This document shows positions 1 to 1,028 of a DNA stretch of 4,639 bases, piece after piece. Numbering within the stretch: the stretch's first letter is position 1; every line of letters starts with the position of its first letter. The stretch lies in IMG/VR virus record IMGVR_UViG_2734482591_000017; one strand, written 5' to 3'. The notes under the pieces are model-generated. The model was given only the letters and a program-made list of their open reading frames with translations. It did not search any database and was not told where the DNA came from. Made by a program: the position numbers and the translations under genes. The stretch is from a virus (lineage: Duplodnaviria > Heunggongvirae > Uroviricota > Caudoviricetes).

Positions 1-127
1 GGCGGCCATCCATCCAGTCATCGGTTCGTCTGAGAATGACGTGCAACTGCGCACGCGACACCCGGAGACAACGGCTGACTAAGCTTACTCCCCATCCCCG
101 GGCAATAAGGGCGCGTGCGCTATCCAC
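1..127 (-). CDS. insD: IS2 transposase InsD (OrfB), N-terminal part only; 3' end lies beyond the window start
   Basis: GTG start at 127-125 (minus strand) gives [20 protein letters not shown]..., matching the IS2 InsD N-terminus from memory. It overlaps the insC 3' end, as expected for the -1 frameshift arrangement. Confidence 0.85.
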
Positions 128-450
128 TTTTTTGCCCGTCCATATTCAACGGCTTCTTTGAGGAGTTCATTTTCCATCGTTTTCTTGCCGAGCAGGCGCT
201 GGAGTTCTTTAATCTGCTTCATGGCGGCAGCAAGTTCAGAGGCAGGAACAACCTGTTCTCCGGCGGCGACAGCAGTAAGACTTCCTTCCTGGTATTGCTT
301 ACGCCAGAGAAATAACTGGCTGGCTGCTACACCATGTTGCCGGGCAACGAGGGAGACCGTCATCCCCGGTTCAAAGCTCTGCTGAACAATTGCGATCTTT
401 TCCTGTGTGGTACGCCGTCTGCGTTTCTCCGGCCCTAAGACATCAATCAT
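85..450 (-). CDS. insC: IS2 transposase InsC (OrfA), 121 aa
   Basis: The ORF track 85..495 contains [30 protein letters not shown]...LLPGDGE. The recognised InsC start is the internal Met (MIDVLGPEK) at 450; the stop is TAA at 87-85. Confidence 0.9.
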
Positions 451-541
451 CTGTACTCCAATGACTAGTCTAAAAACTAGTATTAAGACTATCACTTATT
501 TAAGTGATACTGGTTGTCTGGAGATTCAGGGGGCCAGTCTA

Positions 542-730
542 ANACAGGACGGGTTCGGAGATCACGTACTGGCAACAGCGATCCTGGATCGGCTGCTACA
601 TCACTCAACCACGCTGAATATCAAAGGAGAGAGTTACCGGTTAAAAGAGAAACGTAAAGCTGGAGTGCTGACCAAAAACACAACGCCAATCAGTGATGAT
701 GAAATGGTGGAAAGCGGACAGCATCAGTAA
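542..730 (+). pseudogene. istB-like (IS21 family ATP-binding helper) C-terminal fragment, 5'-truncated
   Basis: Translation ...[60 protein letters not shown] (stop 728-730). The FGD...LDRLLHH...[15 protein letters not shown] motif is typical of IstB C-termini (from memory). No start codon or N-terminal ATPase region is present. Confidence 0.55.
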
Positions 731-788
731 CGAAAGTATTTAGCGGGCATGAAAATGGCAAATAACGGTCAAACATCGTGGCGTTGAC
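542..788 (+). mobile_element. IS21-family element right-end remnant (istB 3' end plus terminal sequence ending ...GGCGTTGAC)
   Basis: It encodes an IstB-like C-terminus (see pseudogene 542-730) followed by about 58 bp ending in TGACA-like terminal bases. It sits exactly between two identical 156-bp IS2-end copies, with a single N at 543. Confidence 0.5.
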
Positions 789-944
789 ACAATTGCGATC
801 TTTTCCTGTGTGGTACGCCGTCTGCGTTTCTCCGGCCCTAAGACATCAATCATCTGTACTCCAATGACTAGTCTAAAAACTAGTATTAAGACTATCACTT
901 ATTTAAGTGATACTGGTTGTCTGGAGATTCAGGGGGCCAGTCTA
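789..944 (-). repeat. Second, isolated copy of the IS2 left-end 156 bp (IRL plus first ~21 codons of insC); exact direct repeat of 386-541
   Basis: Base-by-base comparison: 386-541 equals 789-944 (offset 403), while flanking bases differ (385 a vs 788 c; 542 a vs 945 c). Confidence 0.85.
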
Positions 945-1028
945 CGGACATTTTCTGCCTGTGGACCAGGAAAGTGCACGGGTGCTTTCCACTCCCATGA
1001 AGCCCGGCAATCCGCGCAGATACAGTAA
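945..1028 (+). pseudogene. 3' remnant of a nin-region gene truncated by the IS2 insertion (identity unknown)
   Basis: Frame starting at 945 reads ...RTFSACGPGKCTGAFHSHEARQSAQIQ and ends in tandem stops TAATAA (1023-1028). A GGAG Shine-Dalgarno for the next gene follows at 1053-1056, which suggests a genuine gene terminus. Confidence 0.3.

Follow-up and report, generated by a model that had tools for sequence, protein, structure and literature searches.

Nested insertion sequences upstream of the antiterminator gene Q are very probably the fossil of successive hits on a decayed lambdoid prophage of Shigella sonnei

Insertion sequences (IS) have expanded in Shigella and heavily degraded its genomes, and S. 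sonnei 53G carries IS1, IS2, IS4, IS21, IS600 and others (PMC7373316). A described remnant in this genus is the defective Stx prophage of S. dysenteriae type 1, which is IS-flanked, measures 13.5 kb and occurs in all strains (PMC7819885). For IS2, the insertion galEp3 is known to contain Rho-dependent terminators (PMC8141534). The replication genes of interest here are represented in the Stx2e phage phiP27 by a DnaC-like loader (L18), a helicase (L19) and a small ORF (L20). The helicase gene is intact in phiP27 and in Escherichia coli GB089; in E. coli FDAARGOS_944, an independent IS600 insertion hit another site of the same gene. Further downstream, phage mEp460 and a prophage of E. coli 042 are 98.5-99% identical at the nucleotide level to the present locus over Q, the pR'-like site, the terminator and the tRNAs.

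The window, that is, the whole stretch of DNA analysed here, comprises 4,639 nt of the virus record IMGVR_UViG_2734482591_000017. A preliminary description had read its positions 1-1028 as a minus-oriented IS2 that truncates a nin-region gene and, by polarity on Q, may have made the prophage cryptic. We compared the window with ten loci (L006-L015) on complete S. sonnei chromosomes, taken from 24 of 1407 index blocks. The exact 284-aa Q was found on many S. sonnei chromosomes, including that of 53G (HE616528.1). Outside positions 340-552 and 1427-1676, the window was 99.7-100% identical to the ten chromosomes. The comparison gives a different picture from the preliminary one: the feature is very probably a fossil of successive insertion-sequence hits on a decayed lambdoid prophage of S. 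sonnei. The left part of the window contains the following features.

1-541, minus strand: IS2 segment with its left-end (IRL) tip at 541, 99.6% identical to annotated IS2
85-495, minus strand: IS2 OrfA, ATG at 450, HTH_Tnp_1 (E=2e-19)
542-552, no strand: filler A-N-ACAGGACGG, 11 bases between the IS2 tip and IS21, with a single N at 543
553-789, plus strand: IS21 3' end, last 237 bp, with the IstB C-terminus (stop at 730) and the right inverted repeat
790-944, minus strand: IRL-terminal fragment of IS2, 155 bp, a copy of 387-541 (direct repeat D1, 100%)
945-949, no strand: CGGAC, the right-hand copy of the 5-bp IS2 target duplication
946-1068, plus strand: 3' end of a phiP27-type, DnaB-family helicase gene, last 40 codons and stop (residues 424-463 of 463)

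The repeat search found an identical 156-nt stretch at 386-541 and 789-944, and the IS2 left-end tip (...GGGGGCCAGTCTA) occurs at 541 and again at 944. Phage DNA adjoins the second tip, at 944/945; its IS2 neighbour is the short fragment at 790-944, not the long block at 1-541. This fragment belongs to the IS2 copy sitting in the helicase gene and is parted from the remainder by IS21. The junctions bounding it were also found in the ten complete genomes. The presence of IS2 in 1-1028 therefore stands (1-541 and 790-944), but the region is a composite with filler and IS21 rather than one element.

The assignment to IS2 rests on identity and on both reading frames. In 1-541, 539 bases match a copy annotated as "IS3-like element IS2 family"; OrfA carries its helix-turn-helix domain, and orfB, with the integrase core, is represented by a 301-aa rve product within the same IS2 copy in the complete genomes. 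The minus orientation was correctly described, and the given distance of about 750 bp to Q agrees with the 745 bp in the window and 749 bp in the complete genomes. The terminal inverted repeats of IS2 are known (left end 5'-TAGACTGG..., right end 5'-TGGATTTG...; PMC3299598). The left tips lie in the window, and the right end was found at the locus in the ten complete genomes. The preliminary description had proposed mapping the 5-bp target duplication once the other IS2 end was at hand; both are present, with CGGAC on both flanks in L006-L015. In these genomes the helicase DNA to the left of IS2 reads ...TATAACGGAC up to the right end (IRR), and that to its right starts with CGGACATTTT after the left end. 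The uninterrupted target site, TATAACGGACATTTT, is seen in FDAARGOS_944. From these flanks, IS2 evidently inserted at codon 423/424 of the phiP27-type helicase gene, duplicating CGGAC.

The IstB C-terminus in the window matches PF01695 (E=5e-14), and the IS21 piece at 553-789 is 99% identical to the IS21 of plasmid pE200139_112 and 100% identical to the S. sonnei chromosomes. Both istA (390 aa) and istB (265 aa) are full in the complete genomes. Of the two terminal inverted repeats (TG...CA), the right end is present and the left end is absent. At their left junction, IS21 is without its first ~58 bp and IS2 is without about 47 bp, with a 7-bp microhomology, CATGTTG, between them. These junctions clearly place IS21 inside orfA of IS2, with 155 bp between it and the left end of IS2. 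The IS21 copy at the locus is truncated and, judged by its sequence, immobile. The IS21-in-IS2 arrangement of pE200139_112 was ruled out as the same event; it occupies a different IS2 position and is therefore independent.

Positions 340-552 disagree with ten of ten complete genomes. In BLAST comparisons, 1-339 is collinear with L006-L015 and 340-541 is not. The window has IS2 up to its tip and 11 odd bases in this interval, whereas published S. sonnei chromosomes have about 1.83 kb of IS21, namely istA and most of istB. The same published chromosomes (53G, HE616528.1; CP019689.1) have the IS2/helicase and IS21/IS2 junctions, the 284-aa Q, the tRNAs, iraM and the right-hand IS600 as in the window. 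All IS21 matches start at 553. The junction between the 11-nt filler and IS21 had no match in the loci compared here or in species-representative genome contigs (where the IS2/helicase junction gave no hit either, S. sonnei evidently not being among the representatives), and a search of 5,426 complete E. coli genomes returned no contiguous filler/IS21 match. There, the IS2 tip with the filler gave only gapped chance extensions at 94%. The filler was also considered as a natural IS21 variant or as the flank of another IS2 copy, and neither found a match.

The interval could be real DNA if, in the source strain, a second IS2 had entered istB of the resident IS21 and the two like-oriented IS2 sequences had then recombined, with the loss of about 1.8 kb of IS21. 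The observed map, IS2 (1-541), IS21 tail and IS2 fragment, is the one expected from these two steps, and no other Shigella shows as much recent IS activity as S. sonnei (PMC7373316). However, a simple insertion would leave IS21 sequence at 542-552, which is not what stands there, and two steps of this kind would not give a filler. Moreover, an N stands exactly at the junction, which is missing from the ten complete S. sonnei genomes, the E. coli genomes and the species representatives, and a second N-run of the wrong size (250 nt in the window against 254 real nt in the published chromosomes) marks the window as a scaffold. We therefore regard a genuine rearrangement as unlikely. The abutment of a full IS2 end on an IS21 fragment in the first 542 nt is most likely not real DNA but the product of short-read scaffolding across collapsed IS2 repeats. 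A lone N is what some assemblers insert where the estimated gap is zero or negative, and among the index blocks with the exact Q the longest contig measured 2-5 kb, the size range of the window, in 1139 of 1407. The single N at the IS2 tip, the unmatched filler, the wrong-size N-run and the 2-5-kb contigs together suggest that three short-read contigs were scaffolded into the window, the collapsed IS2 repeat contig (1-542) being set against the next one. The case for this artefact is circumstantial.

The gene cut by IS2 was identified from the DNA on its right side. When 930-1426 was compared with the 5,426 E. coli genomes using BLAST, every match started at 944/945, and the RefSeq annotation at the matched loci reads replicative DNA helicase, hypothetical protein, RusA. 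The product of 946-1068 is 85-88% identical to residues 424-463 of phiP27 L19 and of the 463-aa helicase of E. coli GB089. Both proteins are annotated as replicative DNA helicase, and the intact GB089 protein contains DnaB_C (E=4.5e-72). In FDAARGOS_944, the homologous protein has the C-terminal sequence ...YNGHFLPVDQESARVLSTPMKPGNPRRYSNKRTDSSKMERFF*. The helicase frame has its stop at 1068. The end coordinate of the preliminary description, 1028, is that of an ORF (810-1028) in the wrong frame, open by chance from IS2 across into the helicase tail.

Gene order supports the same identification. In GB089 and FDAARGOS_944, a DnaC-like loader is followed by the helicase, a small ORF and rusA; the small ORF is annotated as frameshifted in GB089, and Q comes directly after rusA in FDAARGOS_944. 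The order of loader, helicase and small ORF is the same in phiP27. Contrary to the proposal, IS2 did not cut a nin gene: what is left is the C-terminus of a DnaB_C-domain helicase, its last 40 codons. Only an 85-codon ORF and rusA lie between the helicase gene and Q, and this phage type is therefore essentially without a lambda-like nin region.

The rest of the window, from the small ORF to the right-hand IS600, contains the following features.

1065-1322, plus strand: 85-codon ORF (orf85), after the helicase gene as in the relatives
1322-1692, plus strand: rusA (Holliday-junction resolvase), its middle masked by 250 N (1427-1676)
1689-2543, plus strand: antiterminator Q, 284 aa (PF03589, E=7e-55)
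2508-2610, plus strand: late-promoter-like site (TTGATT, 16 nt, TAAATT) and intrinsic-terminator-like hairpin
2646-2721, plus strand: tRNA with anticodon CAT, in RefSeq a tRNA-Ile (ileZ type)
2822-2898, plus strand: tRNA-Arg, anticodon TCT
3595-3784, plus strand: STnc100-family sRNA (Rfam, 132 bits against a gathering score of 47)
3810-4145, minus strand: iraM, anti-adapter protein (NF007393, 162 bits, cut-off 121; RefSeq annotation)
4391-4530, plus strand: DUF1737 gene, cut by IS600 (PF08410, E=1.5e-15)
4531-4639, minus strand: end of IS600 (TGAGGTGTACTGG...), about 109 bp, encoding the transposase C-terminus on this strand

The family search with orf85 returned nothing above the cut-off; its place is taken in phiP27 by the 80-aa hypothetical protein L20. 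The RusA match in the window is weak (NCBIfam, 81 bits against a cut-off of 200); the complete genomes encode a 124-aa RusA (PF05866), with real sequence in place of the N-run. Q scored 183.6 bits against the PF03589 cut-off of 26.7 and is followed by the promoter-like site and hairpin. It shares 270 of 273 residues with the Q of E. coli 042 and is 98.5% identical to that of phage mEp460 at the nucleotide level. An 8-bp deletion took out its stop codon and added 11 residues, giving 284 aa in S. sonnei as compared with 273 aa in mEp460 and 042; the protein is otherwise intact. The site at 2508 has a TG upstream of its -10, and the hairpin at 2583-2602 is followed by a T-run; by analogy with lambdoid phages, 2508-2610 is the expected pR'/tR' target of Q. 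The STnc100 sRNA ends at a terminator-like hairpin (3754-3775), and iraM lies antisense to late transcription. The match to E. coli 042 stops at about 4535, in the DUF1737/IS600 zone. The IS600 end in the window is 98-99% identical to annotated IS600; the complete genomes have a full IS600 at the DUF1737 site, and the S. sonnei loci contain further IS600 copies.

All ten complete genomes share one layout: IS600, 41 bp of the helicase gene, the IS2 right end and interior, IS21, 155 bp of IS2 up to IRL, and CGGAC with the helicase tail. The IS2/IS21 nest spans 3348-3350 bp. The only prophage DNA upstream of IS2 is the 41-bp piece, in ten of ten genomes. Past the left IS600, the other strand holds a tail-fibre gene that has lost its 5' part (the match covers profile positions 269-567 of 568) and a second ORF of the tail-fibre family; ipaH (LRR_TTSS and NEL) also lies upstream. 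Beyond the right IS600 we found opposite-strand genes, not the lysis and morphogenesis genes. The surviving phage DNA amounts to ~3.6 kb (helicase tail, orf85, rusA, Q, pR'/tR', two tRNAs, STnc100, iraM and the cut DUF1737 gene). Together with the 3.35-kb nest, it is flanked by two IS600 copies in the same orientation.

With this layout in hand, we considered the preliminary explanation of a polar IS2, here taken to mean that Rho-dependent terminators in IS2 lower Q in an otherwise inducible prophage and so make it cryptic. Q is intact, IS2 lies 745 bp upstream of it, and terminators of this kind are known from galEp3 (PMC8141534). The plus strand through IS2 is untranslated and has several 78-nt stretches in which C exceeds G (on the IS2 antisense strand), as found by a crude C/G window count rather than a validated Rho-site predictor. 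A polar insertion, however, lies between an active promoter and a distal gene; here the 41-bp stub is preceded by IS600, the tail-fibre remnant and ipaH, and no early promoter, repressor or replication operon was found upstream of IS2 in the ten complete genomes. The cut gene is a replicative helicase, so replication is lost whatever Q does, and the late genes are also absent past the right IS600. In lambda, early transcription is antiterminated and built for passing terminators, and even in an intact phage the polarity would be weak. Polarity of IS2 on Q as the cause of crypticity is extremely unlikely and, in the form of pR-to-Q transcription through a nin region, is contradicted for the sequenced S. 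sonnei chromosomes, whose locus has neither nin region nor early operon.

We agree that the prophage is cryptic, most of the phage being missing from the ten complete genomes. The reason is that most of the prophage is gone and the helicase is destroyed, not that Q is under-expressed. No early operon is left to read into Q, which makes the polarity of IS2 moot. We infer that the nest has no regulatory role today and that polarity on Q is without a substrate, because the upstream context that would provide its input is absent in the ten genomes, although to the left of position 1 the source strain may have other DNA. Judged by the arrangement of the locus, Q probably receives little or no promoter input. 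The suggestion that the cargo depends on its own promoters is reasonable. Since iraM is on the opposite strand and STnc100 ends at its terminator-like hairpin, the cargo (iraM, the sRNA and possibly the tRNAs) may well rely on its own signals.

Transcription out of the IS DNA offers another route to Q. The nest might feed orf85, rusA and Q by read-through from istAB or by a weak outward promoter at the IS2 left end. Both istA and istB are oriented as Q in the complete genomes, and no intrinsic-terminator-like site was found on the plus strand from istB to Q, the first in the window being the tR'-like hairpin at 2583. When 541-1386 was scanned under relaxed settings, one promoter-like match appeared (TTAAGA-17-GATACT, 886-914), and IS21 ends in the perfect -35 hexamer TTGACA (784-789), a known source of hybrid promoters (PMC9330008). 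On the other hand, the 886 site matches at 8 of 12 positions only. No -10 hexamer occurs 16-18 nt after the terminal TTGACA, and no sigma-70-like promoter reached the scan threshold on the plus strand of the window before 2900. In a scan of the full nest of L010, promoter-like counts were no higher than in shuffled controls. Such a lack of matches is no proof of a silent Q. The deleted first ~58 bp of IS21 are the part that we take to contain its promoter. The IS2 left end, for its part, is known for a weak inward promoter only, the outward -35 lying in the right end (PMC3299598, PMC9330008). A separate candidate, a 9/12 hybrid promoter match at the junction of the helicase stub and the IS2 right end in L010, was within chance expectation and was rejected.

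Read-through from istAB toward Q is unsupported, and we consider it quite improbable that the nest feeds the downstream genes in either way. The same low probability attaches to the corollary that Q, and through Q the tRNAs, would be kept expressed at a low level. It is very improbable that Q, tRNA-Ile2, tRNA-Arg, STnc100 and iraM form an island kept intact for its use to the host while its surroundings were destroyed, with the immobilised nest as a replacement promoter region, not a block, that supplies low-level Q and rare-codon tRNAs. On that reading, the loss of 8 bp by which Q now runs on through its late promoter might belong to such rewiring.

The preferred reading, a fossil of successive insertions, can be put in the form of a sequence of events. 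After IS2 entered the helicase gene and IS21 entered IS2, a deletion across CATGTTG would have taken away about 47 bp of IS2 and, with the left inverted repeat, the ~58 bp at the start of IS21, immobilising both elements. An IS600-associated deletion may account for the loss of all that lay upstream but for 41 bp of the helicase gene, and the insertion of a second IS600 would have interrupted the DUF1737 gene immediately ahead of the lysis genes. The IS nest destroyed a replication gene and would now stand where no early transcript arrives.

The locus is already in published complete genomes and is ordinary, known IS-driven Shigella decay. Its biological weight is small, as one more case of documented prophage decay by IS in Shigella (PMC7373316). 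The lesson concerns short, IS-bounded draft contigs: an IS end at the edge of such a contig is not readable as regulatory without its flanking context. Here, that context showed that the upstream "operon" is gone and that the apparent structure of 1-552 is probably a scaffold join through repeats.

In comparison with known systems, galEp3 in the gal leader involves the same element. A classical polar IS2 sits between an active promoter and its genes, whereas here no promoter-bearing operon lies upstream; unlike in galEp3, IS2 is split by IS21, and 155 bp of it adjoin the downstream genes. Where phiP27 and GB089 have the intact helicase gene, 40 codons and a 41-bp stub are left. The overall form resembles the Stx remnant of S. 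dysenteriae type 1, likewise a short lambdoid prophage that has lost most structural genes and has IS600 by its cargo (PMC7819885). The S. dysenteriae type 1 remnant has stx; the S. sonnei remnant has no toxin, and its cargo is iraM and STnc100.

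The Q gene of the window has lost its stop codon through an 8-bp deletion at position 2504/2505, as judged against E. coli 042 and E. coli FDAARGOS_944. What was deleted corresponds to a single copy of a short repeat of the GGTAAC type. In phage mEp460, Q is 273 aa long, and the matching stretch is 8 nt longer than in the window. In the index of the assembly collection, exactly this 284-aa protein occurs in 1407 blocks. The features of Q and of the DNA 3' of it are as follows.

1689-2543, Q, 284 aa (273 aa without the deletion)
within 2508-2645, pR'-like promoter and tR'-like terminator, directly upstream of the tRNAs
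2608-2636, second, weak promoter-like site (TTGCGG-17-TATTAT)
3009-3362, + strand, ORF of 117 codons, within the AT-rich part that holds the cargo
3595-3784, + strand, STnc100 sRNA (Rfam match, 132 bits; gathering score 47)
4531-4639, right end of an IS600, which cuts the DUF1737 gene short

The lengthened Q reading frame passes through the late-promoter-like site, the sequence of which is TTGATT-16-TAAATT with a TG element. Transcription from the weak second site would be predicted to start close to the first tRNA's 5' end. Further downstream, in the cargo region, the STnc100 sRNA ends at a GC-rich hairpin (3754-3775). The 117-codon ORF had no match in Pfam or NCBIfam; it is not annotated in E. 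coli 042, and a call for it, as a shorter ORF, is present only in some S. sonnei assemblies.

In the complete genomes, 41 bp separate the IS2 right end from a second IS600 upstream, which has the same orientation as the first. Two like-oriented IS600 copies therefore enclose both the IS nest and the Q island. At L008, one of the complete S. sonnei loci, the IS600-related intervals are 4642-5798 and 12888-14821. One or the other IS600 is split by IS1 in some strains.

Inspection of the left IS2/IS21 junction in S. sonnei CP019689.1 (L010, 7020-7040) revealed a 7-bp microhomology, CATGTTG. Here, IS21 lacks its first ~58 bp, including the left inverted repeat, and IS2 is missing about 47 bp; these losses point to a small deletion after the IS21 insertion. 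In the window, the N-run at 1427-1676 spans 250 nt, as compared with 254 nt in the ten complete genomes, and a lone N at 543 falls exactly at the IS2 tip. The wrong length of the run and the position of the lone N suggest scaffold joins rather than masked real sequence.

The prophage of E. coli FDAARGOS_944 (L001, 6467-9125) is near-identical, with 99.8% identity over the helicase tail, orf85, and rusA. It retains the early region, the lysis genes, and the terminase, and it carries its own, independent IS600 insertion at another site of the same helicase gene.
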